From the NCBI GenBank assembly GCA_040772225.1, contig JAXGYO010000002.1, forward strand, positions 1,725,762-1,789,761: DNA of 64,000 nt, given 5' to 3'. The notes beneath the pieces are model-generated. The model was not told where the DNA came from, ran no database searches, and saw nothing but the letters and a program-made list of their open reading frames with translations. Origin of the DNA: Anaerolineae bacterium. Its GTDB lineage: Bacteria; Chloroflexota; Anaerolineae; UBA1429. This document shows, in pieces, positions 6,369 through 59,282 of the stretch (position 1 is its first letter; each line of letters opens with the position of its first letter). Made by a program: the position numbers and the translations under genes.

Positions 6369-9553
<3,185 letters not shown>

Positions 9554-9570
<17 letters not shown>

Positions 9571-10786: not shown

Positions 10787-10830
10787 GCTTTTCGCATTTG
10801 CTCCATAGTCGGACAGGGTTTGAGTGTTGA

Positions 10831-11628
10831 TCAGTACGCATAGAGACGGCCATAGGGCCGCCGGGTGCGCGGATACAGCTTGAGAAACGAGCCGTCAAGC
10901 AGAGCATCGGGATCGCGACCGAAACAGGCCGCAAAGGCGACCACATACTGGCGGACTGTGACCCAGTCATCGGCGTCGAGTTCGGCGACACCCACTTCCT
11001 TACCGAGGAAGCGATCATCAAAGGGGCCGCGGAGATAGATCACGCCGCCGTGCATGCCAGTGCCGATATAGCGTGAGGGATGTATCTCGCCCGCTTCGAG
11101 ATTCGCGCCCAGCACCAGGATAACGCCGCCGGCCATGTACTCGCCGAGGAAATGTTGTGCCGTCCCTCCGATGACAATCGCAGGGCGCTGTTCCCCATAC
11201 TCTTTCATGTGGATGCCCACGCGATAGCCTGCGTTTCCATTCACCAGAATGGTGCCTCCACGCATCGAGTGCCCAACGATGTCGCCAGCGGAGCCATGGA
11301 TCGCCAGCAACCCGCTGTTCATCGTGTTGCCGCAACCGTCCTGCGCGTCGCCCAGCACTTCCACCAGCGGTCCATCCATAAAGGCACCGAGATCGTTGCC
11401 CGGAACGCCCTCAATCACCATACTCACAGGCGCCTTCAGGTTCGTCCCCAGATAGCGCTGGCCCGATACAGCGTGCAGGGATAGGCGCCGGGCGCCCCGG
11501 TCCACCAGGCTGGCCAGCTCTGCATTCAGGGCCCTGTAGGGCACCCCGCGCGCATCGATGTCGATCGTCTCTGTTGAACAAATTGAACGGGCCGATTCCA
11601 GCGAGACGAGCAGGCGCAGATCAGCCAT
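10831..11628 (-). CDS. Glutamate synthase GXGXG domain protein (GltB3-like, archaeal-type split GOGAT)
   Basis: Repeated G-x-G-x-G beta-helix motifs (GTAQHFLGEYMAGGVILVLGAN). Confidence 0.8.
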   Translation of the reverse strand: MADLRLLVSLESARSICSTETIDIDARGVPYRALNAELASLVDRGARRLSLHAVSGQRYLGTNLKAPVSMVIEGVPGNDLGAFMDGPLVEVLGDAQDGCGNTMNSGLLAIHGSAGDIVGHSMRGGTILVNGNAGYRVGIHMKEYGEQRPAIVIGGTAQHFLGEYMAGGVILVLGANLEAGEIHPSRYIGTGMHGGVIYLRGPFDDRFLGKEVGVAELDADDWVTVRQYVVAFAACFGRDPDALLDGSFLKLYPRTRRPYGRLYAY

Positions 11629-16049: not shown

Positions 16050-16134
16050 GGCTTACCTCAACTGGAATAAAACCGCCGCCCCCTGAGGAGCGGCTTCGCT
16101 GCACGCGGTGGGTCATCAACATCGACCCGATCAC

Positions 16135-16153
16135 CTGTAGGCTTATCTTACAG
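16135..16153. promoter_or_regulatory. Palindrome upstream of split-GOGAT operon
   Basis: CTGTAGGCTTATCTTACAG (TGTA-N9-TACA), about 90 bp upstream of the gltB2-like start. A TGCAC-GCG-GTG partial half-site lies nearby. Confidence 0.2.
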
Positions 16154-16285
16154 GGACCGGTCCGGGGCCACATCGACCGAGTGGAGGATTTCGAGGATGC
16201 CGAACGGAGGATTTAGAGCGCCATATACAGCGAGAGCGGCCCTACCCACCGGGGTGGACCGCTCCAACGGTGCAGATGAAAAGCA

Positions 16286-42197: not shown

Positions 42198-43577
42198 CTA
42201 GCGCCCGGCAAGCCTCTCAACATAGTCCTGCCCCAGAATGACGGCCACATCAACCGCCTCGGTGACATCATCCTGGTAGATCACCGCTTCAGGATCCACC
42301 CCCAACTCCAGGGCAAGGGCAGCCACCGTCAGGGGCCTGTCACGATAAACAACGATAAGCGTCTGGGTGTGGTCAAAGCGGTCGGCGCTGCTATAGCCAG
42401 CGACGACATAGCCCTTGTCCTGCAGGAGCGCCGCGGTTTGCTGCGCCAGGTCGGTCGTCATCGTCCCATTGTATATTGCGACCGACGCCTGCTCGGCGCG
42501 GAACGCATCCGCAGGGACTGGCTCCTCCGCAGGCGGGGTCAGGGACGTCGTCGGGAACAACTCATCAACCAGAATCCGCACCTTGTCCCAATCCGCCACT
42601 TCCACCATCCAGCCCTGTGGCGTGGTGACGGTCGTCGTCATGGAGCCGTCAATAACGCCGCTGCGCAGATTGGCGGGATCGATCTTGCGCGCCGCATCCG
42701 CCAGCGTAACGATCTGCGGGAGCGTGAGATCTGTTTGGACCGACGACCCCAGGAGTTGCAGAATAATGGGGATGCGGGTCAGCGGAATATCCAGACTGAG
42801 GATCTTGTCAAAGGCCGCACGTATCACCTGCTGCTGGCGCTCCATGCGAGAAAAGTCACTGGACCCATGGCGTGTGCGGGCATACTGCAGCGCCATCTCG
42901 CCATCCATATGCTGCAGCCCTGCGGGGATATAGAGCTCCATGGTGCCATAGTCCGCCGTGGGATATTTGGCATCGTAGATATCCTCGGCCACCTCGATAT
43001 CCAGCCCCCCGATGGCATCCACCAGTTGCTCAAAGCCAGCAAAGTTGACGCGGATATAGTGGTGGACCGGCACGCCGAGCGCGTACCAAACGGTCTTTTT
43101 CGCTAGTGCGGGCCCGCCGCCCGGATAGTTCTGATCATCCCCGATGTAATGCGCCGTATTGATGCGGCTCTCACCGTAACCTGGTATGGTCGTCCAAAGG
43201 TCTCGGGGAATGGACAGCATCGACGCTGTGTTACTCACGGGATCCAGCGACAGCAGAATCATGGTGTCCGTTCGCCAGGGGCCAGTTTCGCCATCGCGCT
43301 GATCGATGCCCAGTGCCAGCACATTGATGCGCTCGTCGAGTTCGACAGCCTGAGGCAATACCACTTCGTCAGCCCTGGCCGGGGTGTTTTGATCTGGGAC
43401 AGGCTCTCCCACGGTCTGCGTCACTTGCACGACGCGATCTGCAAAGGGCAGATTCATCTGTGCCACCACCGAGCGCACCGTGCTAAAGAAAAAGAACCCC
43501 GACCACAACGCTCCGGCGGTGATGATCACCGTCAGAAAAGTGCTGATCGCGCGCTGCCACGAGCGTTCTCTGGGCAT
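42198..43577 (-). CDS. LCP-family (LytR-CpsA-Psr) cell-envelope phosphotransferase with LytR_C domain
   Basis: LCP blocks (RTDTMILLSLDP, SIPRDLWTTIPGYG, NFAGFEQLVDAIGG) and an N-terminal TM anchor. Start trimmed to MPRERSW after a GGAAGGA RBS. Confidence 0.85.
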   Translation of the reverse strand: MPRERSWQRAISTFLTVIITAGALWSGFFFFSTVRSVVAQMNLPFADRVVQVTQTVGEPVPDQNTPARADEVVLPQAVELDERINVLALGIDQRDGETGPWRTDTMILLSLDPVSNTASMLSIPRDLWTTIPGYGESRINTAHYIGDDQNYPGGGPALAKKTVWYALGVPVHHYIRVNFAGFEQLVDAIGGLDIEVAEDIYDAKYPTADYGTMELYIPAGLQHMDGEMALQYARTRHGSSDFSRMERQQQVIRAAFDKILSLDIPLTRIPIILQLLGSSVQTDLTLPQIVTLADAARKIDPANLRSGVIDGSMTTTVTTPQGWMVEVADWDKVRILVDELFPTTSLTPPAEEPVPADAFRAEQASVAIYNGTMTTDLAQQTAALLQDKGYVVAGYSSADRFDHTQTLIVVYRDRPLTVAALALELGVDPEAVIYQDDVTEAVDVAVILGQDYVERLAGR

Positions 43578-43937
43578 GAATCGTTCCTTCCGAGAGCTTC
43601 CTGAGGTGTAACGGGTCGAGTATATCACAGGCACGCCAGTCGACCAAAGGGCAGCGCAAATCTTGGGCCTATCGCTCCTTCGGCCGGCTGGCCAGGTTCG
43701 AAACAACGTGATTATGACGCCAGGCGTAACCGAATTGTTCCACCGCCCCGACGCTGCCCTGCGGGTGATCATCACACATGCGATACAGCCTCGGTGCTCG
43801 ACGCATAAGCAAAAGCTTGGTATCATAGCGAGACAGGATGCCTGCCCGACGGACGCCGGCCCGCGCGGCGCACGCCCGGCGTCTATGCAGAAGCTGTTTC
43901 GCGGCCACAATAGTGGCCTGGCACCAGAGCACAAGAG

Positions 43938-45515
43938 GTGATCATGATCAATCTGCTCAGCTGGAGCGATGTCCCGGCAATGTTCGGAAACCGGTTGTTT
44001 CTGGACTATGTCGGACAACAATCTCGTGCCCTCTCGTACTATACCCATGGACCCACCGATTATGCTGCTGCACTCGCAGCGCGGGAGGGACACGCCTATC
44101 CCCGTGCCGAGGTAGCCGATCTGCTCGAGCACTACAATCGCCCCCTGGGAGCCTCCGAGCAGACGCTGTCGAACATCTCTGCACTTGCGCAGCCAGACGT
44201 GTACTGCGTCGTCGGCGGTCAACAGGCCGGGCTGCTTGGCGGACCAGCCTATGTGGCGTACAAGATCGACTGCACTGTGCGGCTCGCGCGCCGCATCTCG
44301 GACATGCTCGGTGTGCGTGTCGTTCCGATATTCTGGCTCGCGAGCGAGGATCATGATTTCGGCGAGATCAACCACACCCACTATGTGCAGCGGGATGGGG
44401 AGATCGGTCGCGTCTCCTTTGACTGGCACGACAAGGGACGTCCGATCGCGGACCTGGCTTTGACAGAGCAGGTTCGCAAAGCGGTCGATGAGTACTGGAC
44501 CTCAGCACAGCCAGGACCGTTTGCAGAGGTTACTCGTGCGTTGACTGAGCCACGCAACTCCCGGTACTGCGACTGGTTGGCTGCTTTCTGGCTCAAACTG
44601 TTCGCTGACGACGGCTTGGTGGTCGTCGAACCGTCGACGCTCCGGCCTGTGGCGGGGTCCTTTTTCCAGAGAGCATTGCAGGAGCGCGAGACCATCGGCA
44701 ACCACCTGCAGGGCGTGGCCGATCGCCTGCAGCAGGACGGCTACACCCCGCTGCTGGATCCAGAGACTGCCGGAGTGCTGTACACCTTTGATGACAACGG
44801 GCGACGCGTTCGCGTTCACGAACCCGCCACGCGACTGGCGGAGGCCCTGACGCACCCCGAGCGCTTTTCGACCGATGCGGCGCTGCGCCCGCTGCTGGCA
44901 GACAGTACGCTGCCAGTCATCGCCAGCACGCTGGGGGCCGGCGAGTTGGCCTACCAGGGTATGTTGCGTCCGGTCTATGAGGAATTTGGCATCCCTCAGC
45001 CGATCTGCTTTCCCCGCCAGAGCTACACTTTTGTGTCTGCGACCGAGGAGGAGCGGCTGGCGGCCTACGGTCTGCGCCCGAGGGATGTCATGCGACATGA
45101 GATCGACATGGACAGTAGCATGCGAGGTTTGATGCCTCCCGGAGAACTGGACCGGTTCGCTGAGGCGCGTACGAACATTGAGCGGGCACTCGATCCATTG
45201 CGAGACTATGTTGAGCAGCTGGATCCCAACCTGGGCCGCTCATGGGAGCAGGCTCTGTCGACAGCGCTGCGCAACATCGACAAACTTGAGGACCGCGCCG
45301 TGAATGTGACCCTCAGCCGGGGTGGCTACTCCCGCCGCGAGCTGCAAACGCTGCGCAACATCATTCTGCCTCGCGGCCGGCTTCAAGAACGCGTTCTACC
45401 GGTGACACACTTTATGCAGCACTATGGGCCCTCGTTCCTGGGCAGACTGCGGGAGACTGGCGAACTTGAGCGCTTTGGACACGCCATCGTGACGCTGGAG
45501 GGTAAACATGCCTGA
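43938..45515 (+). CDS. bshC: Bacillithiol biosynthesis cysteine-adding enzyme
   Basis: BshC/YllA blocks VVGGQQAGLLGGPAY and IFWLASEDHDFGEINH. Confidence 0.8.
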   Translation: MIMINLLSWSDVPAMFGNRLFLDYVGQQSRALSYYTHGPTDYAAALAAREGHAYPRAEVADLLEHYNRPLGASEQTLSNISALAQPDVYCVVGGQQAGLLGGPAYVAYKIDCTVRLARRISDMLGVRVVPIFWLASEDHDFGEINHTHYVQRDGEIGRVSFDWHDKGRPIADLALTEQVRKAVDEYWTSAQPGPFAEVTRALTEPRNSRYCDWLAAFWLKLFADDGLVVVEPSTLRPVAGSFFQRALQERETIGNHLQGVADRLQQDGYTPLLDPETAGVLYTFDDNGRRVRVHEPATRLAEALTHPERFSTDAALRPLLADSTLPVIASTLGAGELAYQGMLRPVYEEFGIPQPICFPRQSYTFVSATEEERLAAYGLRPRDVMRHEIDMDSSMRGLMPPGELDRFAEARTNIERALDPLRDYVEQLDPNLGRSWEQALSTALRNIDKLEDRAVNVTLSRGGYSRRELQTLRNIILPRGRLQERVLPVTHFMQHYGPSFLGRLRETGELERFGHAIVTLEGKHA

Positions 45516-46224
45516 GGTGGACGTCATGGCCTTTGGGGCGCATCCGGACGATATCGAGATCGGTTGCGGCGGTACGCTGATCAAGCTGAGTGAGCGAGGG
45601 CGCTCCATCGCCCTGGTCGACATGGTGCGCGGGGAGATGGCCACCCGCGGCACTATCGAGACTCGCAAGGCCGAGTCCAAAGCAGCCACCGCCATCCTGG
45701 GCGCTGTGGCGCGCGAAAACCTCGAACTCGAGGATGGAAACGTCCATTCCAGTCCGGAGGCGCGCTATCGTGTCGCCAAGGTGGTGCGGCGATACCGCCC
45801 CTCGCTGGTCATGCTCCCCTACTATGAGGACCGGCACCCGGATCACTATAACGCCAGCCAGCTGGCCTACGAGGGGATCTTTGCCGCTGGCCTGGTGCGC
45901 CTGAACACCGGACAGGAGCCCTTCCGCCCGGCACGGATCATGTACTATATGGGCTGGTACGAGTTCGAGCCGACCTTTATCGTGGACATCAGCGAGCAGT
46001 ATGAGCGCAAGATGCAGGCGATCTATGCCTATACCACACAGTTTCGGCCCGATGACAACTTTTACCAGCAGACGCGTCTGACCTCCAGCGAGTACAACTG
46101 GCACCTGCAGAGCCGTATGGCGCATCTGGGCGCACAGATCGGCTCCAGGTATGGAGAGGGGTTTCTCATCCGCGGCCGCATGGCCGTCGACGATCCTCTT
46201 GACGTCTCATTCTCGACATTCTAG
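45508..46224 (+). CDS. bshB: N-acetyl-alpha-D-glucosaminyl L-malate deacetylase (LmbE/PIG-L family)
   Basis: VMAFGAHPDDIEIGCGGT zinc-binding LmbE motif. Overlaps the bshC end. Confidence 0.8.
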   Translation: MPEVDVMAFGAHPDDIEIGCGGTLIKLSERGRSIALVDMVRGEMATRGTIETRKAESKAATAILGAVARENLELEDGNVHSSPEARYRVAKVVRRYRPSLVMLPYYEDRHPDHYNASQLAYEGIFAAGLVRLNTGQEPFRPARIMYYMGWYEFEPTFIVDISEQYERKMQAIYAYTTQFRPDDNFYQQTRLTSSEYNWHLQSRMAHLGAQIGSRYGEGFLIRGRMAVDDPLDVSFSTF

Positions 46225-46260
46225 CGGGGCAGGCGCCTATTCCCCCTACGGAGAAATGCG

Positions 46261-47379
46261 ATGCGAATCGGGATCACCTGTTTTCCAACCCATGGCGGCA
46301 GCGGCGTTGTGGCGACCGAGCTGGGCAAGATACTCGCCAGGCGGGGCCATGAGATCGCCTTTATCTCTTATGCAGCACCCCTGCGCCTGGCTGATATCCC
46401 GGAGCGCGTGAGCTTTCATGAGGTCGATGCGATGCAGTATCCCTTGCTGCAGACCTATCCGAACGACCTCGCTCTGGCCTCGAAAATCGTATCGGTCGCT
46501 CGCATGAAGCGTCTGCAGGTGCTGCACGTGCACTATGCGATCCCCTTTGCCCCCGCTGCGCTCATGGCGAAATACGCCGCGCCCGAGCTGGACCTCAAGG
46601 TGGTGACTACCCTGCACGGTACCGACATCACGCTCGTCGGCAGCGACCCGACCTTTCGGCCGATCACCCGTTGGTCCATCCAGGAATCGGACGCCGTCAC
46701 GGCGGTATCCGAGTGGTTGAGGACAAGGGCGATTGAAGAGTTCGCTATCGACCGCCCAATCGATGTCGTGCACAACTTTGTCGATCCTGAGCGCCATGCG
46801 AGACCCTGCCCCGGTTGTATCCCGCCCCTGACGTGCGCCGGCGAGGTGACACTGCTGCACATCTCAAACTTTCGCCCGGTAAAGCGCGTCGAGGATGTGG
46901 TGCGCGTCTTTGCCCGTGTGCGCGCCAGGATGGAGGCACGGTTGCTGCTGGTGGGGGATGGACCCACGGCGGGCAGTGCCATGGAGGTTGCTACGGAACT
47001 GGGTGTCGCAGACCGCGTCCACTTTATCGGCGTAGTGGAACAGATCGAGCCTGTGCTCCAGCAGGCGAACCTGCTGCTACTCCCCAGTGAGACAGAGAGC
47101 TTTGGGCTTGTCGCGCTGGAAGCCATGGCCAGCGGTGTCCCGGTGATCGCCAGCCGCGTGGGCGGGCTGCCCGAGGTGGTTGCCCATGGTGAGACCGGCT
47201 ACCTGGCCCCCGTCGGTGACGTGGATGCGATGGCAGAATATGCCATCGGGCTGCTGCAGAATCCGATCGCATATCGGGAGTTCTCTCAAGCCGCTCACGA
47301 GCGTGCCGCCAGATTGTTTGACTATCATCTGCTTGTCGATCGCTACGAGGGCATCTACGACCGGGTCCTGGGAATATGA
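46261..47379 (+). CDS. bshA: N-acetyl-alpha-D-glucosaminyl L-malate synthase (GT4 glycosyltransferase)
   Basis: MRIGITCFPTHGGSGVVATELGKILARRGHEI matches the BshA/YpjH N-terminus. GT4 C-terminal E-x7-E region. Confidence 0.85.
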   Translation: MRIGITCFPTHGGSGVVATELGKILARRGHEIAFISYAAPLRLADIPERVSFHEVDAMQYPLLQTYPNDLALASKIVSVARMKRLQVLHVHYAIPFAPAALMAKYAAPELDLKVVTTLHGTDITLVGSDPTFRPITRWSIQESDAVTAVSEWLRTRAIEEFAIDRPIDVVHNFVDPERHARPCPGCIPPLTCAGEVTLLHISNFRPVKRVEDVVRVFARVRARMEARLLLVGDGPTAGSAMEVATELGVADRVHFIGVVEQIEPVLQQANLLLLPSETESFGLVALEAMASGVPVIASRVGGLPEVVAHGETGYLAPVGDVDAMAEYAIGLLQNPIAYREFSQAAHERAARLFDYHLLVDRYEGIYDRVLGI

Positions 47380-48179
47380 CGATATCGGACCTCGAGTCCC
47401 TCGTCCCCGAGCTGCCGGAGCTGCACCTGGCAGCGCCGGTTGAACGGGCCGGACTCGCTTCCTGGCCGGCCGCGTCAGAGCAATTCCTGGATGGCCTGCT
47501 CCTGAGGTTTTCCGAGGGGTATACGCGACGGGCCAACTGCGCCAGCGCCTACACCGCCGGGGCCATGGCTTTGGCGGACCGAATCGCCACCTGCGAAGCT
47601 TTTTTCGTTGCGCACGCTTTGCCCCCCGTGTTCCGCCTGATTAGCGCCTGGCCACAGCCGGCCCTGGATGCGGCCCTGGCCGAGCAAGGTTACGCCCTCG
47701 GCGACCGCACCCACGTGCTGACCGTGGGCCTGGCGGATAGCGCTGGACTGGGCGGATCCGCGCCATTCTGGCGGCAGGGTGATGCCAGCAGTTGGGTTGA
47801 GGCCTACAGCCAGGTAAGTGGCATGTCTCCCTGGCAGCACGATCCACTGCTGCGCATCCTGCGGGACATCAAGGGGGAGAGATTGCTATGTGGCCTGGGT
47901 TGTGTGGAACAGCCGTTGGCCTGCGGCCTTGGGGTCGTTGAGGGTGGCCTGCTCGGGCTGTTCGACATCGCCGTACGGCCAGATTGCCGGGGCCGGGGGT
48001 ATGGACGAACCCTGGTGACCGCGATGTTATCCCTTGGCAGAGCTTGTGGCGCGCGTGTGGCCTATCTGCAGGTCACAGAGGCGAATGTCGCTGCGAGGAG
48101 CCTGTACTACAGCCTGGGTTTCGCGGAGCTTTACCAGTACTGGTATCGTCAAAAGCCAACCCCGGCTCGCCAGGCCTGA
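47376..48179 (+). CDS. Two-domain GNAT-family N-acetyltransferase (MshD-like architecture)
   Basis: C-terminal acetyl-CoA binding motif (RGRGYGRTLVTAML...YLQVTEANVAARSLYYSLGF) with an N-terminal pseudo-GNAT half. ATGA overlap with the bshA stop. Confidence 0.65.
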   Translation: MTISDLESLVPELPELHLAAPVERAGLASWPAASEQFLDGLLLRFSEGYTRRANCASAYTAGAMALADRIATCEAFFVAHALPPVFRLISAWPQPALDAALAEQGYALGDRTHVLTVGLADSAGLGGSAPFWRQGDASSWVEAYSQVSGMSPWQHDPLLRILRDIKGERLLCGLGCVEQPLACGLGVVEGGLLGLFDIAVRPDCRGRGYGRTLVTAMLSLGRACGARVAYLQVTEANVAARSLYYSLGFAELYQYWYRQKPTPARQA

Positions 48180-48753: not shown

Positions 48754-49020
48754 CTACGAACGCGTCGTTCCGGCGAGGCGCTTCCCCTTGTCGGTCACGC
48801 GCCAGACCCGCCTGTTGCCCAGGATCGCACAGATTGCGGCCTGAGCGCAACCAGCACAGTGGCGATCGCATTCTCCGGTGACAGCGACGAGATAGCCGCC
48901 CCTCTCTAGATCCTGCAGCATCTGCTCGACAAGGTCAGCACTCACCGAGAGCCGTGACGCCACGTCCTGGACGGTGGACAGTTCACCACTGGCGAGGATC
49001 TCGAGAAGATTTTCCAGCAC
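48754..49020 (-). CDS. feoC: FeoC-like transcriptional regulator
   Basis: 88 aa winged-helix protein with a C-terminal Cys cluster (CDRHCAGCAQAAIC), directly after feoB. Confidence 0.6.
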   Translation of the reverse strand: MLENLLEILASGELSTVQDVASRLSVSADLVEQMLQDLERGGYLVAVTGECDRHCAGCAQAAICAILGNRRVWRVTDKGKRLAGTTRS

Positions 49021-49030
49021 AGCGCGTGCC

Positions 49031-51052
49031 CTACAGCCAGAGGCGGGCCAGCTGATAAACGACGATACCGCCAGCCAGAGCCAATAACCCCAAAAAGAGC
49101 ACGTTCACCAGCACCCACTTCCAGGATCCGGTTTCTTGACGGATGGCGGCCAGAGTGGCGACACAGGGGATAAACAGCATCTCTACTGCGAGAAAGGCCA
49201 GGCCGGAGGCCGGAGTGAACTCGGTACCCATGAGGGACCGCAGCCCGCCGCCTTGCTCGCCGACACCATACAGCACGCTCAGGGTGGCGACGGCATTCTC
49301 CTTGGCGACGAAACTGCTCAGAATCGCCACGATGGATCGCCAGCTCAGACCCATGAGATCGCCCACCGGCTCAAGCGCATGTCCGAGGACCGCCATGTAG
49401 CTGCTGTCGACATCGCCGCCGGGAAAAGTCACCAATGCCCAGACGATCACCGACACAGCCAGAATCACGGTTCCAGCCTTTTTCAGAAAAGACACCGTCC
49501 GCTGCCACACCGTCATGCCGATGGTGCGTCTGTTGGGGAGATGGTAGAGCGGCATCTCCATGATAAAGGCAGACTGGATGTTCTTGAGGAATACCTTCCG
49601 GATGATGATGCCTGAGAGCGCCAGAACCACCAGCGGCAGGGCGGTCATACCCACAGTCACCAGTACCGCTCGATCAGCAAAGAACGCCTGCGCCAGCACC
49701 GTCAGTACCGCAAGGCGTGCTGTGCAGGGGACCAGAGGCGCAAGCATAATCGTCAGGATGCGATCACGCCTGGATTCGAGAATGCGGGCGCCCATAATGG
49801 CCGGCACATTGCAGCCAAAGCCGAGGAATAGCGGCATAAAGCTCTTGCCATGCAGCCCGATGCTGTGCATAAAGCCATCCATCACATAGGCCGCGCGCGC
49901 CATATAGCCCACGTCTTCGAGAAAGCCCATGCCCGCGAAAAAGATCACCAGGATAGGAAGAAAGGTCAGCATCGTCCCGACGCCGCCGATGATTCCCTCG
50001 ACGGCCAAACCGCGAACCCACTCCGGCGCCTGCGCCAGCGCTTCGCCGGTCCAGCGGGCCAGCGGGCCCATCACGGCAGAGTCGACCCAGCCTTGCATGG
50101 GCCCACCGACGGCATAGGTCAGTCCGAAGATGGCTGCTAGAACGATGGCCAGGACCACAAGCCCCCAAAAGGGATGCGTGGCATAGGTATCGATGCGCTG
50201 AGTGATCGTGACATGTCCGGCCCTGGGCCTGGTCATGGCCGTGAGAGCCACCTGACTGATCCAGGCATAGCGTCCGCTGGCCACGGCAACGATCGCATCC
50301 TCGTGCGCTCGGAGCACATCCTGCATCTGCTCCCACGCCGGCGTTGGCAGCCAGTCCTTGGTCAAACCGGTGATCTGCTGATCGCCCTCCAGCAGCTTGA
50401 GTGCCACCCAATCCGCCGGGTAGGGCTCTGGAACAAAGTCACCAATAACCGCCAGCACGCGTTCCAGCACATCTTGATGATCGGCACGGATCTCCGGCCG
50501 GTTGACTTGCTGCGGCTCCTGTCGCTGAGCCACCTCTATGGCGGCATCCAGGAACTCGTGCACGCCGACGCCCCGTGCCGCCGTCATCGGCACAACAGGT
50601 ACGCCTATCGCCGCAGACAGCACCTCAGGGCGAATGGCATAGCCCTCCTGCTCGGCGACATCCATCATGTTCAGGCCGATCGCCAGCGGGCAGGAAAGCG
50701 CCAGTAGCTCTGTAACCAGGTAAAGGTTGCGTTCCAGCGAGGAGGCGTTGATGACGACCATCACCACGTCGGGGCGTTCTTTCAGGATATACTCGCGTGT
50801 GACCACCTCCTCCGGCGAGGCAGCGGTCAGGCTATAGGTGCCGGGGAGATCAATGATGTCCAGAACAAGACCATGGTGCTCGAGCGTACCCGAGCGCATC
50901 TCCACGGTCTTGCCGGGCCAGTTTCCCACATGCTGATTGAGACCCGTGAGCATATTGAACACGGTGCTCTTGCCAACATTGGGCTGCCCTGCCAGTGCGA
51001 TCGTCAGGCGGCGGGCGCCAGGCGTGCCAGTGAGCTGTGAACCGGTCGTCAC
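49031..51052 (-). CDS. feoB: Ferrous iron transporter B
   Basis: N-terminal GTPase (ALAGQPNVGKST) plus a polytopic membrane domain. Confidence 0.9.
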   Translation of the reverse strand: MTTGSQLTGTPGARRLTIALAGQPNVGKSTVFNMLTGLNQHVGNWPGKTVEMRSGTLEHHGLVLDIIDLPGTYSLTAASPEEVVTREYILKERPDVVMVVINASSLERNLYLVTELLALSCPLAIGLNMMDVAEQEGYAIRPEVLSAAIGVPVVPMTAARGVGVHEFLDAAIEVAQRQEPQQVNRPEIRADHQDVLERVLAVIGDFVPEPYPADWVALKLLEGDQQITGLTKDWLPTPAWEQMQDVLRAHEDAIVAVASGRYAWISQVALTAMTRPRAGHVTITQRIDTYATHPFWGLVVLAIVLAAIFGLTYAVGGPMQGWVDSAVMGPLARWTGEALAQAPEWVRGLAVEGIIGGVGTMLTFLPILVIFFAGMGFLEDVGYMARAAYVMDGFMHSIGLHGKSFMPLFLGFGCNVPAIMGARILESRRDRILTIMLAPLVPCTARLAVLTVLAQAFFADRAVLVTVGMTALPLVVLALSGIIIRKVFLKNIQSAFIMEMPLYHLPNRRTIGMTVWQRTVSFLKKAGTVILAVSVIVWALVTFPGGDVDSSYMAVLGHALEPVGDLMGLSWRSIVAILSSFVAKENAVATLSVLYGVGEQGGGLRSLMGTEFTPASGLAFLAVEMLFIPCVATLAAIRQETGSWKWVLVNVLFLGLLALAGGIVVYQLARLWL

Positions 51053-51055
51053 AGT

Positions 51056-51313
51056 CTATCGTCCCCTCTGGCGCACAAGCACATGCCTAGCCTGGCCGCG
51101 GCCCAGCGCGATACACGTGTCCAGCACATTGACGATAATCGGACCGCGGGGTGGATTTCGGAGGACACGAACCGTCACCCCCGGAGTGAATCCCAAAGCC
51201 GCCAATCGCCCGCTGAGTCCATGCCCCCCGAGCAGAGAAACGATGGAGGCCTCGTGGCCCTCTGGGACAGAATCAAGAGAAGTTGTCAGGTCGCTCAAAA
51301 GCGTACACCTCAT
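51056..51313 (-). CDS. feoA: Ferrous iron transport protein A
   Basis: 85-aa SH3-like FeoA domain (GRLAALGFTPGVTVRV). Confidence 0.8.
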   Translation of the reverse strand: MRCTLLSDLTTSLDSVPEGHEASIVSLLGGHGLSGRLAALGFTPGVTVRVLRNPPRGPIIVNVLDTCIALGRGQARHVLVRQRGR

Positions 51314-51337: not shown

Positions 51338-54295
51338 TCAGTCTACCCATTCACCGCCCACTGTCAAACAAGCGGGCAAGTTGACCAGATAGGCAAGAAC
51401 GAAGAATACCCAGTGTGCCAGCTCAGGAACAAACAGGGCATTATCGATGAGGCCATGAGCGAACATGGCCGCCAACCCTCCCAGGAGCCCGACCAGCACC
51501 GCGCGCGAGGCTGGAGCGTACACTTGCCAGCGCCTGGCAACTGGAAGCCCCGCAGCGACCAGGGCGCCCAGGAACAACAGCAGACCGGGCAGACCGGTCC
51601 GAACCAGGAGATCCAGGGCAAAGTTATGCGGATGGGAGAGCCAGCGCTCGATCTCTGCGCCGGGGAGAATATAGTCTCCGTAATAATAGAGAAAGTTATC
51701 GAGGCCCACGCCGGTCCATAGATGATCTTTGGCCATCTCCCAGCTCGATTGCCAAAGCTGCAACCGCAAGAAGGTGGTGCCGCTCTGTAGATCCAGCAGG
51801 GAGGCAAAGCGCTCCGTCTGCATCAGCGGGATCAGGCAGAGCCCAAGGACGGCAAGGGCAACCAGGGCGTATGTTCGCACGCGCTTGCCCTTGAGCAGGC
51901 CGATAACCAACAGACCCGCCGGCACGCCGAGCAACCAGGCGCCACGGGAATAGGTGAGGATAACTGCAAGAAGAATCACCGCTGCCCCGGCTGCCCAGAA
52001 CCATCTCTTTTTGCCACTGCCCGACACATCGTCACCCGCTTCGGTGGCCACCGATATTCCCAGCGGCAGCATCCGTTCGAGATAGAGCGCCAGATTGTTG
52101 GGGGATCCAAAGAACCCACGCGCGCGCCTGACGCCCTCCGCCTCGATGACGCCCGCAGGAGAGGGATATCGCACAAGAGCATAGAGCGCGACCCCGACTG
52201 ACGAGGCGAAAAAGACACCCACCAACTGCCGCCAGAGGCGGCGGTCGGCCCCCGTGATCCGCAGCAGGAGATACAACAGGGCCGGCTCGGCCACCGCGGT
52301 GCGAAACTCGCGCAGGGCCTCGCGCTGGTACTCGGCACGCCAGGCTCCCATCCCCACCCAGGCCACAAAGGTGAGCAACAACAGATCGACCCAACTCAAC
52401 TGCTTGAAGCGTAACAGCTCAAGGCGCTCGCCTCCAAGTATCGCGGCGCCTGCCCGGGCCAGCGCGGCGCAGAGCACGGCCAACTCGGTTATCGAAAAGG
52501 TGCCAGGGCCCAGTCCGACATGGAGCGGGGCCAGGGGGATCGTGGCGACCGCGACGAGCAGGGCAGCATCGGGGCGCAGGAGCACCCCCATCCCGTACAG
52601 GGCCAGGAATCCAAGCCGGAGCATCGACCCGGGAGCCACCATGGCAAGCCCAAAGGTGAGCGCCATCGCGGCCAGGAGCCAGCCATCCGGTAGAGCATCG
52701 ACTCGCGCGCGTGCCCACCGGTAGGGGCGTCGCCAGTCGACCAGCCGCAGCCCCTGAACGATCCCCACTAGAAGCCAGGCACCGAGCAGCAATGAGAATC
52801 CGATCGTCGCCCATAGTCGTGTCACCTCAGGCCTGGCACCGACCTGCAACCCGCGAATGGCGTCGATCTGCGCGACGGTACCCACCAACGTGACAGTGCG
52901 TCTCTCGGCCGCCGCCGTCCTCACCACCCGGAATCTTGCGATTTCATCGTCGTGTGCATTCAGGATGATGGTTCGCTCATAGGGTGCCAGCACGCGCAAC
53001 ACCCCTTGCAGCCCGTCAGTATCCATCTCCACGAACAGATCGGACCCGTAAAAGTCAATCGAGACTGCGCGCTCCTCGGTAGCTGGCAGACCCGCCGGAA
53101 GGAGAGAGGAAACGCTGTGGCGCCCTGGAAAGCGCGTGCCATCAGTGTGCAAGCCCGGCTCTAGCGAGAGCATCAGCGGTTGTGGCTCCCCATCGGCGCC
53201 CAAGAGGCTGAGTCCCCAAACGGGGTCATCGATCTGTGCCATTGGCTGCAGATGGAGCGCACAGAACAGCGTCATCCAGGGCCACTCGCGCTGTACACGA
53301 TTGAAGGCCTCTTTGAGGCGCGAGGCCTGCAGCGTCGCGCTGTCGCTGCCCAGCGCCGAGGGTTGGCCGGTCCAGCCCTCAGGGAGGGCCACCCAGCCGC
53401 CTTCCAGCGCCCAAACTGGCTTGGCATCCTCACCCCGCTTGATCATCTCCTCGCGGAGCAGGATTACCCGCGAGAAATTGAGCACATCCGCGTCCACGCG
53501 CCTGTCATAGGCCCCCGACCAGAAGCCATAAGCCTTGACACCCAGCACATCAAAGTAGGGTGCCCCGCCCAGACGATAGATCTCTCGCAGAAAGAGGAGA
53601 TCACTCATGTTGCGGCCGGAGCGCTCAGTGTTGGGCGCCATGCCCCCCGCGATAATCAGAGCGCCCGGATCGGCGGCGCGGATTGCAGTGGCAGCCTCTT
53701 GCAGCATCGCCACATATCCCGCGGGATCGATAGCTCCCTTGCCCCAGTGGGGGTAGATGTTGGGCCGGTCCCAGATCTGGTAGGCACGAATCTGCTCGCC
53801 ATACCGCTCCGCGAAAGCAGCGGCGAACCGTGCAAAGGCCTCAGGATCCGCCGGCGGAGCCCAGGGATTGTCGGCCTCGTGTGTGGGTCGGGCCCAGATG
53901 GGAGAACGCTCCAGAACAGCCACGATCTGCAGTCCCTGCCCGTGCACCAGCGGCAGAACCTCGTCCCAAAAGCCCCACTCAAAGCGCCCGGGCTCCGGCT
54001 CGAGCGCATCCCAGAAAAAGTGCTGCACCAGCGTGCCATAGCCGAGGGCTTGAACGGTACTCAGCGCATCGAGTACCTGGAGGTTGGTGGTGTACTGCTC
54101 CAGAGCGACATTGATGCCCGCGCGGGGCGACTCCAGCACGGGCTGGTCGGCCGCCAGGCCCGACGCAACGCCCCTGTGCTGCTGCCGGTACGCACTCACG
54201 TCCTGGACAGCGACCGCCAGCAGCGCGACCAAGAGAATCCCTCGCACCAATATGCCGGCGAGGTCAAGCAGCGTCTGGCGTCTCGATCGCATCAC
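51338..54295 (-). CDS. Fusion protein: N-terminal clan GH-A-like TIM-barrel domain + C-terminal O-antigen ligase/polymerase (Wzy_C) membrane domain
   Basis: N-terminal signal anchor, GH-A-like blocks (FWDALEPEPGRFEW; QIWDRPN where the canonical NEP is replaced). C-terminal multi-TM region has Wzy_C motifs (GSPNNLALYLERMLPLG; HPHNFALDLLVRTGLPGL). Confidence 0.7.
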   Translation of the reverse strand: MMRSRRQTLLDLAGILVRGILLVALLAVAVQDVSAYRQQHRGVASGLAADQPVLESPRAGINVALEQYTTNLQVLDALSTVQALGYGTLVQHFFWDALEPEPGRFEWGFWDEVLPLVHGQGLQIVAVLERSPIWARPTHEADNPWAPPADPEAFARFAAAFAERYGEQIRAYQIWDRPNIYPHWGKGAIDPAGYVAMLQEAATAIRAADPGALIIAGGMAPNTERSGRNMSDLLFLREIYRLGGAPYFDVLGVKAYGFWSGAYDRRVDADVLNFSRVILLREEMIKRGEDAKPVWALEGGWVALPEGWTGQPSALGSDSATLQASRLKEAFNRVQREWPWMTLFCALHLQPMAQIDDPVWGLSLLGADGEPQPLMLSLEPGLHTDGTRFPGRHSVSSLLPAGLPATEERAVSIDFYGSDLFVEMDTDGLQGVLRVLAPYERTIILNAHDDEIARFRVVRTAAAERRTVTLVGTVAQIDAIRGLQVGARPEVTRLWATIGFSLLLGAWLLVGIVQGLRLVDWRRPYRWARARVDALPDGWLLAAMALTFGLAMVAPGSMLRLGFLALYGMGVLLRPDAALLVAVATIPLAPLHVGLGPGTFSITELAVLCAALARAGAAILGGERLELLRFKQLSWVDLLLLTFVAWVGMGAWRAEYQREALREFRTAVAEPALLYLLLRITGADRRLWRQLVGVFFASSVGVALYALVRYPSPAGVIEAEGVRRARGFFGSPNNLALYLERMLPLGISVATEAGDDVSGSGKKRWFWAAGAAVILLAVILTYSRGAWLLGVPAGLLVIGLLKGKRVRTYALVALAVLGLCLIPLMQTERFASLLDLQSGTTFLRLQLWQSSWEMAKDHLWTGVGLDNFLYYYGDYILPGAEIERWLSHPHNFALDLLVRTGLPGLLLFLGALVAAGLPVARRWQVYAPASRAVLVGLLGGLAAMFAHGLIDNALFVPELAHWVFFVLAYLVNLPACLTVGGEWVD

Positions 54296-54349
54296 TGTCC
54301 CCCTGCCGCTGCAGGCGCAGGCAGATATAGAGTGCAGCTATCGTGAGGA

Positions 54350-57009: not shown

Positions 57010-58437
57010 CTATTCCTTTTGCGACACCATCTGCAGAATCGCGCCCAGATCGGCGGTGACATCAAAGCTGCCCCAACGCCCGCTTGCATCGCCGGCGTTA
57101 AAGACCGCAAAGCCAATGACATAGGGGTCCCGCCGCAGCTCATCGTCGTACCAGGAGAGTTGCTCGATATATCCTGCGAGTGAGCCCTCGGGCCCGCTCT
57201 CCTCAAAGTCCTGCCAGCCTCCCAGTCCGGCCTTTTGGGCAACCAGCACCCCGCCATCAACGCCAGCCTCTGTCACCACCAGGGGCACAACCAGCCTGGC
57301 AGGGGCGAGATAGTGCTCGTACCAGTAGCGATAGCGCAACGTGAGACTGCCGTAATCCGCCTCCGGGTCGTGGCCGGGTATACCCTGCCCAACACCGTCC
57401 ATCATCGTCGGCGCCGAGTACTCGTGCAGAGCAAGAACGCCGCCATGGGCTTTGGCAGCCTGGATAGCAGGAAGGAACGCTGCAAACTCATCCGCTTCGG
57501 GCGTTCCAGTGGAAAAGTTTCCTACAGCGACCTTAAAGCCGAGGGCGGCCATCAGCTCAGCACGTTCAGCCTCAAAGCTCGCGTACCATGCCATGTCTGC
57601 GGGACTGTCGATGCCGGGTTCATTCCATCCCAACCAGTAGTCCACGCCTGGATTTGCCAGATATCGCGCTGCGTGGGCCATCACAAACTGTTGCGCGCGC
57701 TCGGCTGGATCGCCAGTCAGGGTCTGATCGACCTCATCAAATCGCCCCAGCGTGATCGTCCCAGGAGAAATCTCTTTGGCCTCAGTCAGCCAGCCCAAAT
57801 CCCCGACACCTACAAGTACCGCGGGCTGGGCATCCTTGATAAAGGCCATGATGTTCGGATCAGAGTTTCTGGTGACGTGCAATCCCAGCTTGCTGCGCCC
57901 GTCGGAATAGTCAAAGGACAGGGGCTCTTCCTCGACCACAAAGGCCATCTCGGCGCTCAAAGGCACGCTCCAAAGAGTAGTGCGACTGCCCTCGCCCTGA
58001 TCGACCACAAAGGCGCTCCACCCCTCGGACCAGTTCATCTCGATCTGGTGGCAGCACGCCAGTGGATCTGCCTCTTGATACGCAAAGACATGCGAAACAG
58101 ACTCGCCAGCAGGCAATACATCCACGAACCACTCGGCGCTCTGCTCATCCTCGGACTCTGGGGCAAAGAAACGGTCCAGGACAAACAGGCTGTACAGGTC
58201 CCAGCTGCTCAGGTTGCTCATGGTCACGACGTACCGCGGAGAGGTAGCTGGAACAAAAGTGGCCTGCAGGAGTAGCACATCGTCTGCCACAGGGTCTACA
58301 AGGGGAGCGGACAGATGCTGGGGTGCGTCTACGACGATGACGGAATCACCGCGCACCAGGGCGACAGGGGCGCAGGCCAAGATCACCAATGCCAGGGTGA
58401 AGAGCGCTCGAAGGATAGAGCCGGATCGCAAGTGCAC
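57010..58437 (-). CDS. Secreted clan GH-A (GH5-like) glycoside hydrolase-like protein
   Basis: Signal peptide after a GTG start (GGAGG RBS). WLGWNEPG (acid/base) and LVVTEAGVDG (nucleophile) motifs. Confidence 0.7.
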   Translation of the reverse strand: MHLRSGSILRALFTLALVILACAPVALVRGDSVIVVDAPQHLSAPLVDPVADDVLLLQATFVPATSPRYVVTMSNLSSWDLYSLFVLDRFFAPESEDEQSAEWFVDVLPAGESVSHVFAYQEADPLACCHQIEMNWSEGWSAFVVDQGEGSRTTLWSVPLSAEMAFVVEEEPLSFDYSDGRSKLGLHVTRNSDPNIMAFIKDAQPAVLVGVGDLGWLTEAKEISPGTITLGRFDEVDQTLTGDPAERAQQFVMAHAARYLANPGVDYWLGWNEPGIDSPADMAWYASFEAERAELMAALGFKVAVGNFSTGTPEADEFAAFLPAIQAAKAHGGVLALHEYSAPTMMDGVGQGIPGHDPEADYGSLTLRYRYWYEHYLAPARLVVPLVVTEAGVDGGVLVAQKAGLGGWQDFEESGPEGSLAGYIEQLSWYDDELRRDPYVIGFAVFNAGDASGRWGSFDVTADLGAILQMVSQKE

Positions 58438-58556
58438 CTTTGCCTCCAAGGCCGCCGCACAGAACGCAGGTTCGTGTACACTTAAAGTATACACGATGCT
58501 CAGATGCGCAACAAGGCCTTTCCATCCGCAGTTCTTACCGAGTCCCATGTGAAACA

Positions 58557-59282
58557 CTACGGAAATCCGACGCCAGGGCCAGGCGGATGGGTCAGCGCCA
58601 TGCCCCAGACGATCTCTGCACCGGCATCGCAGAGGGCCTGTGCACAGGCGGACATGGTCGCCCCAGTAGTGAGCACATCATCGATCAGAAGCACACGCAC
58701 GCCCCTGGGCACCTCTTCCGTACAAGCGAAAGCGCCTGCAACATTGTGCAATCGTTCCTCGGGCGAGAGCCCCACCTGAGACCGGGTCGCACGCCAGCGA
58801 TGCAGGACGTTGGGACACAGGTCAAGGCCAGTGTTTGCGCAAAAGCCGCGGCCAAGCAACTCTGCCTGGTTGTAGCCGCGCCGGCGCAACTGGGCGCGAT
58901 GGAGCGGGACGGGGATCACGACGTCCACAGTGCGCGCCTGCGCCCGCCAGGCGTCCGCGAGCAGGGTGGACAATGGATCCGCGAGGACGCGAACGCCACC
59001 GTACTTTAGTCCGTGCACGGCTTCGCGCAGGGGATAAATGTGAGGAGACAGTGTCAGTGCCCCTGCCAGCGCCTCCGTCCGGTTCCGGAGACGCGGCACA
59101 AGGTTCAGCCTACCGCGGCCGGGTATCGACGAGATGCACGCCGGGCAGAGCCAATCTCCTGCGCTGCCGCAGGCCACACAGTGTGGCGGAAACAGGCCAT
59201 CAAGCAGCGTTCCAAGGGGCCCGCTATCTTTCGCCCTGAGCCAGACTGGCAACGTCACCCTTCCTCGGGAAACTCGCTCCAC
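58557..59282 (-). CDS. comF: ComF-family protein (phosphoribosyltransferase-like)
   Basis: N-terminal Cys4 (CVACGS...CPAC) and a C-terminal PRTase motif (VLLIDDVLTTGATM). Confidence 0.7.
   Translation of the reverse strand: MERVSRGRVTLPVWLRAKDSGPLGTLLDGLFPPHCVACGSAGDWLCPACISSIPGRGRLNLVPRLRNRTEALAGALTLSPHIYPLREAVHGLKYGGVRVLADPLSTLLADAWRAQARTVDVVIPVPLHRAQLRRRGYNQAELLGRGFCANTGLDLCPNVLHRWRATRSQVGLSPEERLHNVAGAFACTEEVPRGVRVLLIDDVLTTGATMSACAQALCDAGAEIVWGMALTHPPGPGVGFP

Follow-up and report, generated by a model that had tools for sequence, protein, structure and literature searches.

A PslG-like (beta/alpha)8 barrel and a WaaL/Wzy-type membrane domain joined in one protein of Anaerolineae-type Chloroflexota

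Wzy_C covers both polymerases and ligases, and Wzy enzymes need a separate partner (Wzz/PCP) for chain handling and length setting. For PslG, the part that such hydrolases play in synthesis is still debated. Glycosidase folds can also be non-catalytic or re-purposed, as in beta-Klotho (GH1) and the chi-lectins (GH18). The envelope of Anaerolineae-type Chloroflexota is poorly understood. In the Psl machinery of Pseudomonas aeruginosa, PslJ is the Wzy polymerase and PslG (CAZy GH39; PDB 4ZN2, 5BX9, and 9G17) is an inner-membrane-anchored component (PMC6813494; PMC13434223), in which Glu165 serves as acid/base and Glu276 as nucleophile (PMC11912335). In PglL and PglS, which belong to the Wzy_C superfamily and possess WaaL-like active sites, the substrate cleft is built in part by a further periplasmic domain (PMC12800693).

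Examination of the window, namely, the whole 64-kb stretch of Anaerolineae DNA analyzed here, revealed a single unbroken ORF (51338..54295, minus strand, as are all features of this protein listed below) that encodes 985 aa when read from a GTG and ends with a TGA stop (51338-51340). The sequence-only reading had proposed that one 985-aa protein comprises a GH-A-like domain fused to a Wzy_C membrane domain, an assignment that holds for a single ORF conserved at full length in many genomes. The idea that the long ORF is an artefact, whether a reading frame arisen by chance in GC-rich DNA or a pair of genes run together by a frameshift in sequencing or assembly, draws on one homologous MAG contig (L001) in which the gene is split into two ORFs and otherwise on prior expectation alone. 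Against this, over 100 proteins in databases and 73 ORFs from independently assembled genomic sequence share this architecture along their full length, at 31-86% identity; moreover, an identical protein (P0001) occurs in a separate assembly, and the structure model is confident across the junction. An artefact is thus vanishingly improbable, with a frameshift or merged-gene origin being ruled out by the full-length homologues and the confidence of the model at the junction. The 985-aa ORF is a real membrane protein.

A survey across Chloroflexota, as had been called for, detected the architecture in more than 180 full-length homologues (31-86% identity) from the NCBI classes Anaerolineae, Ardenticatenia, and Caldilineae. 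The fusion is widespread in Anaerolineae-type Chloroflexota rather than rare, and databases already list it under the name "O-antigen ligase family protein," an annotation that overlooks half of the protein. Stand-alone versions of the barrel subfamily were also considered. Among the best 150 cluster representatives, 47 were shorter than 760 aa; their ends were scattered, with many presenting frameshift-like tails or ending inside the membrane domain. As such, these short representatives look like fragments, and the stand-alone candidates were rejected. The protein is uncharacterized yet built of known parts, with literature searches addressing PslG/Wzy/GH39 fusions and O-antigen ligases in Anaerolineae/Chloroflexi yielding no published description of the fusion itself.

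Read from the N-terminus, a membrane anchor leads into a (beta/alpha)8 barrel of the GH39/PslG type and a beta-sandwich, after which a linker helix connects to a Wzy_C membrane domain resembling WaaL. The anchor (aa 10-34; 54194..54268), previously read as an N-terminal signal anchor, is apparent from hydropathy (2.66), from a continuous model helix spanning aa 5-40 and from charge distribution. Since R3, R5, and R6 precede the anchor, the N-terminus is predicted to be cytoplasmic and the barrel to lie outside. The barrel (aa 52-390; 53126..54142), assigned by sequence alignment and the structure model, is followed by the beta-sandwich (aa 391-486; 52838..53125), as in PslG, according to model secondary structure and a Foldseek alignment to PslG across 448 columns. 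On the basis of hydropathy, the model and charge, a linker transmembrane helix (aa 492-518; 52742..52822) is predicted to take the chain back to the cytoplasm, where an Arg-rich helix (aa 522-533) would follow. The remainder of the protein (aa 519-985; 51341..52741) corresponds to the WaaL-like polytopic membrane domain, containing about 14 predicted helices and bearing conserved residues in outward-facing loops.

The full-length structure model (pLDDT 93.5, pTM 0.88) includes a confident TIM barrel in the N-terminal region, contrary to the possibility raised at the outset that this fold might be missing. The GH-A-like barrel of the sequence-only reading is specifically PslG-like (GH39). The predicted topology, considered in terms of charge distribution and the model, places all Lys/Arg-rich loops in the cytoplasm and the barrel, together with every conserved Wzy_C loop residue, outside. 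Moreover, a pTM of 0.88 for a protein of two equal-sized halves suggests that the modeled barrel has a defined docking on the membrane domain.

The order of anchor, (beta/alpha)8 barrel and beta-sandwich is the same as in PslG, which likewise lies outside the cytoplasmic membrane in a polysaccharide pathway that uses a Wzy-type polymerase. PslG is, however, a separate protein, whereas the fusion barrel is covalently joined to a membrane transferase. In addition to the barrel and accessory beta-sandwich, significant sequence similarity to GH39 members was detected. In HMMER alignments, R177 aligned with the PslG acid/base Glu165, D176 with Asn164 and E298 with the nucleophile Glu276. Accordingly, the Asn-Glu-Pro expected of GH39 at the end of strand beta4 is replaced by Asp176-Arg177-Pro178 within W175-D176-R177-P178-N179 (53759..53773), as considered in light of the alignment, PslG residue roles and family variation; the altered acid/base motif that had been noted earlier is thus real. 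At the end of strand beta7, in W295-A-L-E298-G-G300-W301 (53393..53413), the nucleophile Glu is present in the query, although the family as a whole does not conserve it. The -1 subsite residue Asp332 of PslG is also kept, as D357.

Residue usage at these positions was next counted in 184 unique full-length homologues. The acid/base position was occupied by E (89), Q (68), N (14), R (7), S (4), A (1), or K (1), meaning that DRP represents one of seven states and is not peculiar to the query. At the nucleophile position, E (90), D (29), A (26), N (17), H (8), G (6), S (6), and T (2) were found, with 65/184 homologues being non-acidic. Glu occupied both catalytic positions in only 36/184 homologues, which may be true hydrolases. 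The entropies of the acid/base and nucleophile positions fall at the 48th and 64th percentiles of barrel sites, respectively, and parsimony assigns them at least 36 and at least 37 changes, as compared to a barrel median of 37. By contrast, their neighbors W175, N179, and G300 underwent no changes. Even relatives sharing 59% or more identity with the query differ in their states at the catalytic positions. Nonetheless, the barrel is the best-conserved region of the protein (1.76 bits, compared to 2.02 for the membrane domain), containing 23 positions conserved in at least 97% of the homologues, seven of which are Trp; within the ectodomain, conservation is lowest in the beta-sandwich (entropy of 2.67 bits).

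That both catalytic positions drift within an otherwise strongly conserved sugar-binding face supports binding rather than hydrolysis and suggests that the role of the barrel can be non-hydrolytic, such as chain handling. The earlier proposal of a glycan-binding or transglycosylating module rather than a hydrolase is hence supported in its first part, while the transglycosylating option gains nothing, since conservation is lacking at the nucleophile position too. In the sequence alignment, the distal subsite residues of PslG (His81, Arg84, Tyr114, Asp133, and Gln134) are not conserved in the fusion, and Asp83, although aligned with D96 of the query, corresponds to Ala in the family consensus. 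The glycan handled by the fusion is, therefore, probably not Psl.

A barrel that is still an enzyme, whether a PslG-like or a non-canonical endoglycosidase that trims, releases or proof-reads the polymer of the attached Wzy_C domain via other carboxylates, also has to be considered. In one version, D176 would work with E298; in another, restricted to members with D-E at the end of beta4, a substrate-assisted mechanism would operate with no enzyme nucleophile. A non-canonical catalytic set is possible, given that the query retains E298 and that E224, D249, and D357 are near-invariant, as is D176 (D in 163/184 and H in 20/184). Furthermore, in addition to the Glu-Glu members, 46/184 homologues combine D-E with a residue at position 298 that is not acidic, and only 18/184 possess neither carboxylate, a low share that hints that one carboxylate still matters. 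E at position 177 and an acidic residue at position 298 are anti-correlated, with the odds ratio of 0.21 having been calculated ignoring phylogeny, which weakens this point. Precedents likewise exist, as PslG hydrolysis contributes to Psl production (PMC6813494) and a "failsafe" role in trimming has been proposed for the enzyme (PMC13434223). The C-terminal domain of PgaB was long taken for a binding domain until its hydrolase activity was demonstrated (PMC5933820), a history that advises caution in reading the barrel as binding only; like beta-Klotho and the chi-lectins, however, and unlike the query, PgaB is among stand-alone or receptor proteins with no glycan transferase fused. At the same time, substitutions at the two canonical positions are as frequent as at an average site, and with Arg, Lys, Ser, or Ala at the acid/base and Ala, Gly, Ser, or Thr at the nucleophile position, no one mechanism suits the whole family. 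A catalytic barrel is accordingly deemed unlikely.

In the membrane half, the canonical Wzy_C motifs recognized earlier were confirmed by a match to Pfam Wzy_C (PF04932; E=3.3e-24; 85.8 bits vs. a gathering cut-off of 31.7) across aa 770-909 (51569..51988), a region that holds R784, R844, and H888/H890. [quoted passage not shown] R784, R844, H888, and H890 align with R191, R265, H311, and H313 of Cupriavidus metallidurans WaaL (CmWaaL; PDB 7TPG/7TPJ), despite only 16% identity between the two proteins. As the link between CmWaaL and E. coli numbering is one that we infer, R784, R844, and H890 would be the equivalents of E. coli WaaL R215, R288, and H338. S887-H-P-H890-N891 (51623..51637), read from the sequence as the start of S-HPHNFALDLL (aa 887-897), opens the ligase motif H[NSQ]X9GXX[GTY] (bioRxiv 10.1101/2022.10.31.514599), here H890-N891-X9-G901-X2-G904. 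R665, R724, N733, N734, R741, R844, W848, D866, H888, and H890 are identical in 184/184 homologues, with R or K being found at the R784 position in 181/184. As compared to WaaL, the membrane half of the fusion contains about 15 predicted helices, linker included, in addition to the N-terminal anchor and a 450-aa ectodomain, and its hosts are Chloroflexota. The equivalog models for RfaL, i.e., WaaL proper (NCBIfam NF012031; 10.6 bits vs. a cut-off of 277), and IctB (TIGR00947; 49.8 bits vs. a cut-off of 366.4) were matched far below their curated cut-offs. Neither sequence nor fold can, however, tell a polymerase from a ligase.

Genes neighboring the fusion were considered at 30 loci offering at least 6 kb on both flanks. 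Envelope-glycan genes were found nearby in 22 of these. Recurrent neighbors included a UXS-like SDR (UDP-sugar decarboxylase-like; 15/30), GT4 (10/30), a second, stand-alone Wzy_C gene of approximately 500 aa in the same cluster (9/30), mreBCD/pbp2/rodA (9/30), a GT-C/PMT-like gene (8/30), and GtrA (7/30). In contrast to Wzy systems, no Wzx, PCP/Wzz, or initiating transferase was seen among the recurrent neighbor clusters. At the window locus, the gene lies between mnmG and feoAB, with mnmG and a NUDIX gene found upstream and feoA/feoB/feoC downstream, a context common to close relatives only. Here, no glycan genes were detected in the same operon, and the neighbors that recur in other genomes (UXS-like, second Wzy_C, GtrA, polysaccharide-cluster GT4, and mreBCD-pbp2-rodA) are absent from the window. 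A GT4 gene at 46261 was rejected as a polysaccharide-cluster gene, as it forms part of a bshC/bshB/bshA (bacillithiol) cluster. An LCP-family ligase gene is found 7 kb from the fusion in the window and in close relatives; as it is nearby only in the clade of the query and in L032, it was rejected as a general partner.

Such neighbors bear on whether the membrane domain acts as a ligase or O-oligosaccharyltransferase. In that case, it would take glycan completed on undecaprenyl diphosphate and attach it to an acceptor other than lipid A, the candidates being peptidoglycan, a wall polysaccharide, a surface protein, or a glycolipid; the barrel would recognize this acceptor, and the clustered stand-alone Wzy_C paralogue would serve as polymerase. 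WaaL is the only solved relative, the ligase motif and the putative E. coli equivalents are present, and the second Wzy_C gene at 9/30 loci fits such a division of labor. Likewise, O-oligosaccharyltransferases of the superfamily, such as PglS, bear an extra periplasmic domain (PMC12800693), although this domain is C-terminal, about 110 aa long and not of a glycoside hydrolase fold, with the acceptor being a protein Ser. Yet the equivalog scores are low, Wzy_C includes polymerases too, the nearby LCP-family ligase of the window and close relatives could provide the attachment step, and the simplest expectation for a domain descended from a polymer-cleaving hydrolase is that the polymer itself is what it binds. 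A ligase is thus considered somewhat unlikely, although it comes a close second in what is a leaning toward a polymerase.

Overall, slightly better than even confidence is placed in a reading of the protein as an undecaprenyl-diphosphate-glycan polymerase or ligase with a built-in, mostly non-hydrolytic PslG-derived glycan-binding module. The C-terminal half would be a transferase of the WaaL/Wzy type (Wzy_C, GT-C-like) that works on the outer side of the cytoplasmic membrane, moving glycan from undecaprenyl diphosphate onto an acceptor hydroxyl, with R784 and R844 holding the diphosphate and H890 acting on the acceptor, by analogy to WaaL. The membrane-anchored barrel and beta-sandwich, also on the outer side, would retain a conserved sugar-binding face but no longer need the retaining-hydrolase dyad, as reflected in the Arg at the acid/base position here. 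Rather than cutting the polysaccharide, the barrel may grip it for the transferase as a lectin would, whether as nascent chain or as acceptor end; it could serve as the built-in chain-handling (co-polymerase-like) module of a Wzy-like polymerase. PslJ and other Wzy polymerases share the superfamily and undecaprenyl-diphosphate-glycan chemistry, PslJ being likened here by family and pathway. PslJ and PslG act on one polymer, and the fusion resembles these two proteins joined covalently. It offers Rosetta-stone-type evidence that the "biofilm hydrolases" encoded in Wzy-dependent polysaccharide operons do their work in physical association with the polymerase or ligase. More speculative, and unlikely as it stands, is that Anaerolineae-type Chloroflexota share an envelope polysaccharide whose core synthase is the fusion, that the PslG-derived pseudo-hydrolase barrel replaces Wzz/PCP to hold and measure the growing chain, and that the action of the fusion is coupled to the Rod (MreBCD-PBP2-RodA) machinery adjoining it in several lineages. 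The fusion and the linked UDP-sugar, GtrA, GT4, and Rod-complex genes offer a way into envelope biogenesis in these bacteria.

Finally, the start of the protein was considered. Translation from the ATG at 54292, yielding 984 aa, is more likely than from the GTG. The identical database protein P0001, originating from another assembly, is 984 aa long and begins at this ATG, and a Shine-Dalgarno-like stretch read from the sequence (AGGGGGA; 54298..54304) lies 5 nt before the ATG and 2 nt before the GTG.

The fusion, in which a PslG-like barrel (PslG being the Psl endoglycosidase of Pseudomonas aeruginosa) is joined to a WaaL/Wzy-type Wzy_C membrane domain, is encoded by a single open frame of 985 codons that begins at a GTG (51338..54295, minus strand). 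The second codon is an ATG (54292) with an AGGGGGA stretch 5 nt before it, and an identical 984-aa protein from another assembly (P0001) begins at this ATG; residues are numbered here according to the 985-aa form. The upstream gene, mnmG, stops at 54350, while feoA begins 24 nt past the fusion stop. The motifs quoted in the sequence-only reading were located at aa 175-179 (WDRPN) and aa 888-897 (HPHNFALDLL).

Pfam matched Wzy_C to aa 770-909 (E=3.3e-24; 85.8 bits, as compared to a cut-off of 31.7); in the N-terminal half, its sole signal was a faint one for GH42. Among solved structures, the N-terminal half (aa 78-401) matched PslG, a GH39 enzyme, with E=8e-18 when the single sequence was used and 4e-26 when the family profile was used. 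In a very confident AlphaFold2 model (mean pLDDT 93.5; pTM 0.88), generated with 102 homologues as input, the chain opens with a helix at aa 5-40, continues through an eight-stranded beta/alpha barrel (approximately aa 52-390) and a beta-sandwich (aa 391-486), enters a long transmembrane helix (aa 492-518) and ends in a helical membrane domain that reaches the C-terminus. The TIM-barrel fold proposed from the sequence alone is thus borne out by the model and the PslG match, and the high pTM suggests a fixed arrangement of the predicted barrel and membrane domain.

Three Arg residues precede the first hydrophobic helix. When the helices of the model were threaded alternately, the Lys/Arg-rich loops (aa 517-533, R574, 622-634, 681-686, 753-764, 803-807 and 921-922) all fell on one side; the opposite side carried the barrel together with every conserved residue in the loops of the Wzy_C half (E663/R665, E720-N734, R784, R844-H890 and H947/D951). 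An extracytoplasmic location is therefore predicted for the PslG-like module as well as for the active site of the transferase. In the model, helix 492-518 returns the chain to the cytoplasm, where the WaaL-like core begins, and so permits an outside domain ahead of it. As such, the charge pattern and the model agree with the expected N-terminal anchor, outside barrel and helical membrane domain.

In PslG, Glu165 serves as acid/base and Glu276 as nucleophile, while Asn164 hydrogen-bonds the -1 sugar (PMC11912335). HMMER alignment placed R177, D176 and E298 of the fusion at Glu165, Asn164 and Glu276, respectively, anchored by invariant neighbors on one side (W175, P178 and N179) and the other (W295, G300 and W301); the acid/base motif is hence altered, as earlier noted. 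Across 184 unique full-length homologues, position 177 is E in 89, Q in 68, N in 14, R in 7, S in 4, A in 1 and K in 1, and position 298 is E in 90, D in 29, A in 26, N in 17, H in 8, G in 6, S in 6 and T in 2, with Glu at both positions in only 36. Even the nine closest relatives (59-86% identical) differ, position 177 being R, R, Q, Q, E, R, Q, A and Q and position 298 being E, E, E, G, D, D, E, E and G. The entropies of positions 177 and 298 correspond to the 48th and 64th percentiles among barrel positions, and parsimony on a neighbor-joining tree assigned them at least 36 and 37 changes, respectively, the median barrel site undergoing 37 and W175, N179 and G300 none. The barrel is otherwise the most conserved region of the fusion, with a mean entropy of 1.76 bits, as opposed to 2.02 in the membrane half and 2.67 in the sandwich; the 23 positions that reach at least 97% conservation, including seven Trp, cluster at the C-terminal ends of the strands. 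As judged from this pattern, what is strongly constrained in the barrel is its structure and its sugar-binding face, and not retaining-hydrolase function. Together, the constrained barrel and the unconstrained dyad point to a PslG-derived, largely non-hydrolytic glycan-binding module, favoring the earlier suggestion of glycan binding over hydrolysis.

The barrel may nonetheless have kept a catalytic role through a non-canonical mechanism. E298 is retained in the query, and D176, E224 and D357 are nearly invariant in the family; position 176, where the clan GH-A residue is Asn, is Asp in 163 and His in 20 of the 184. The main 176-177-298 classes are D-Q-E/D (56), D-E-E (36) and D/H-E with a non-acidic 298 (47), and we note that the 46 members of the last with D-E at the end of beta4 recall substrate-assisted enzymes. 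Moreover, E177 tends not to occur with an acidic residue at 298 (odds ratio 0.21; Fisher p=1.6e-6, n=184, uncorrected for phylogeny), only 18 sequences lacking both carboxylates. The C-terminal domain of PgaB, first called a binding domain and later shown to be a hydrolase (PMC5933820), likewise warns against a binding-only reading. Against such catalysis stands the average-site rate at which positions 177 and 298 change, and the binding module is the reading favored here. As for its ligand, Asp332 and Phe319 of PslG, the former from the -1 subsite, align with invariant D357 and with F344, whereas most distal subsite residues (His81, Arg84, Tyr114, Asp133 and Gln134) are not kept and Asp83 aligns with D96 of the query at a site where the family consensus is Ala. 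Because of this loss of distal subsite residues, the glycan handled probably differs from Psl.

The membrane half shows the reverse pattern: R665, R724, N733, N734, R741, R844, W848, D866, H888 and H890 are the same residue in every one of the 184 homologues, and 181 have R or K at position 784. Alignment with CmWaaL, the Cupriavidus metallidurans O-antigen ligase, paired R784, R844, H888 and H890 with R191, R265, H311 and H313, and H890-N891-X9-G901-X2-G904 conforms to H[NSQ]X9GXX[GTY], the ligase motif that, together with R215, R288 and H338 of the Escherichia coli enzyme, is reported to be critical for WaaL (bioRxiv 10.1101/2022.10.31.514599). The Pfam match, the WaaL-type Arg/His set and this motif confirm the Wzy_C assignment, and the transferase half, by its conservation, is as constrained as one would expect for an enzyme that is active. 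Whether it acts as a ligase must be seriously considered, given that the sole solved relative and the motif are both those of WaaL. A second, stand-alone Wzy_C gene (approximately 500 aa, sharing 25-34% identity with the fusion's C-terminal half) found in the same cluster in 9 of 30 well-flanked loci would also fit a polymerase plus ligase pair. Yet, the fusion scores far below the curated thresholds for the specific ligase families RfaL and IctB, the Wzy_C family takes in polymerases too, a domain descended from a polymer-cleaving enzyme would most simply bind the polymer itself, and both the window and close relatives have an LCP-family ligase gene at a distance of 7 kb. We thus lean toward a polymerase with a built-in chain-handling module.

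In such a protein, the barrel would sit permanently against an undecaprenyl-diphosphate-glycan transferase and hold the polysaccharide for it. PslG is anchored to the inner membrane as part of a biosynthetic complex, with membrane association mattering for Psl production (PMC6813494), and is proposed to act on chains straying from the export conduit (PMC13434223). In the Psl system, PslG and the Wzy polymerase PslJ are separate; by analogy, the fusion would be the covalent form of such a pair, with hydrolysis dispensable. Both halves are of known kinds, and databases annotate only the Wzy_C half. The literature on PslG/Wzy fusions, on Wzy_C with GH39 and on O-antigen ligases in Anaerolineae/Chloroflexi yielded no description of the combination or of a family-wide release of the hydrolase dyad. 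The fusion offers a solid lead, open to testing, on the way hydrolase-like proteins assist polysaccharide polymerases and on Chloroflexota envelope biogenesis, and not a new principle.

A database search returned 367 relatives, the best 120 of which, with few exceptions, have lengths of 835-1054 aa (coverage 35-100%), come from Anaerolineae/Chloroflexota MAGs and, where named, are called 'O-antigen ligase family protein'. Scanning GTDB, with one genome per species, gave at least 600 stretches, 593 of them confirmed relatives; the scan patterns sit in the Wzy_C half, and some of the stretches may be stand-alone paralogues. Save for a few truncated contigs, the best 80 loci present the full-length architecture (31-85% identity), arguing against two genes having been merged by a sequencing artifact. 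Their labels (Anaerolineales, Anaerolineaceae, Ardenticatenales, Promineifilaceae and Caldilineales, several generic Chloroflexota/Chloroflexia and one Patescibacteria contig) correspond in NCBI taxonomy to the classes Anaerolineae, Ardenticatenia and Caldilineae. When the ectodomain alone was used to search 1.84 billion cluster representatives, 446 clusters were found at E<=1e-30; 103 of the best 150 exceed 760 aa, and the shorter ones stop at scattered points and look like fragments, such that this barrel subfamily seems to exist essentially only as a fusion. The Patescibacteria contig (L042; DATLAB010000026.1, 81 kb, labeled 'Patescibacteria group bacterium'), which encodes a full-length homologue (8001-10874) and a stand-alone Wzy_C paralogue (15872-17410) resembling that of Chloroflexota loci such as L048, is probably mis-binned or mislabeled. 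In locus L001 (631-3308), an 85%-identical homologue is divided between two ORFs that overlap (351 and 634 aa), most likely reflecting a frameshift error in a short MAG contig.

In distant loci with enough flank, a UDP-glucuronate decarboxylase (UXS)-like SDR gene lies immediately downstream on the same strand in 28 of 63, and a gene encoding a G5, DUF348 and PD40 beta-propeller protein lies immediately upstream in 23 of 56 (e.g., L071, 484-2163), with an NAGPA (phosphodiester glycosidase) and PD40 variant at this position in three (e.g., L054, 5222-7807). The DUF348-G5-PD40 protein is extracytoplasmic and a recurrent same-strand upstream partner (27 loci); it or the NAGPA/PD40 protein may be a co-factor of the fusion. 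GT4, GtrA, PMT_2/GT-C and second Wzy_C genes occur within a few kb, and in 9 of the 30 loci flanked by 6 kb on either side, mreB/C/D, pbp2 or rodA lie nearby. Rod genes are either co-directional (G5-PD40 > fusion > UXS > mreC > mreD > pbp2 > ... rodA; L033, L072, L043 and L028) or divergent (rodA < minD < minC < pbp2 < mreD < mreC < mreB, fusion > UXS > Wzy_C > GtrA > GT4; L010, L008, L002 and L054), the rod-adjacent fusion often being accompanied by the UXS-like SDR, second Wzy_C, GtrA and GT4. These gene associations support a role in envelope glycan assembly and hint at coordination with wall elongation.

In the window, the minus-strand order is NUDIX, mnmG, fusion, feoA, feoB and feoC, beyond which lie a GNAT gene, bshA/bshB/bshC and an LCP (LytR_cpsA_psr family) gene. 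In a 59%-identical relative, NUDIX, mnmG and the fusion (overlapping mnmG by 4 nt) are followed directly by bshA/B/C and LCP; therefore, feoA, feoB and the FeoC-like gene (48754..51313, minus strand), 3' of the fusion, look like an insertion before the bsh cluster in the query's lineage. That bacillithiol biosynthesis cluster (43938..48179, plus strand) comprises bshC (43938..45515, plus strand), a bshB-like PIG-L deacetylase gene, a bshA-like GT4 gene and the GNAT acetyltransferase gene, and its GT4 was accordingly rejected as a sign of a polysaccharide operon. LCP enzymes join undecaprenyl-diphosphate-linked polymers to peptidoglycan, an activity of possible relevance to the fusion; the LCP gene (42198..44429, minus strand) encodes 743 aa with a LytR_cpsA_psr domain (aa 386-544) and a LytR_C domain. 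Its start is probably over-extended in the mechanical ORF call, because the first approximately 490 nt overlap bshC on the opposite strand and the orthologue in a relative is just 457 aa. Finally, a 515-aa ORF (57010..58557, minus strand) without a Pfam match shares 88% identity with its counterpart in the closest relative, L011.
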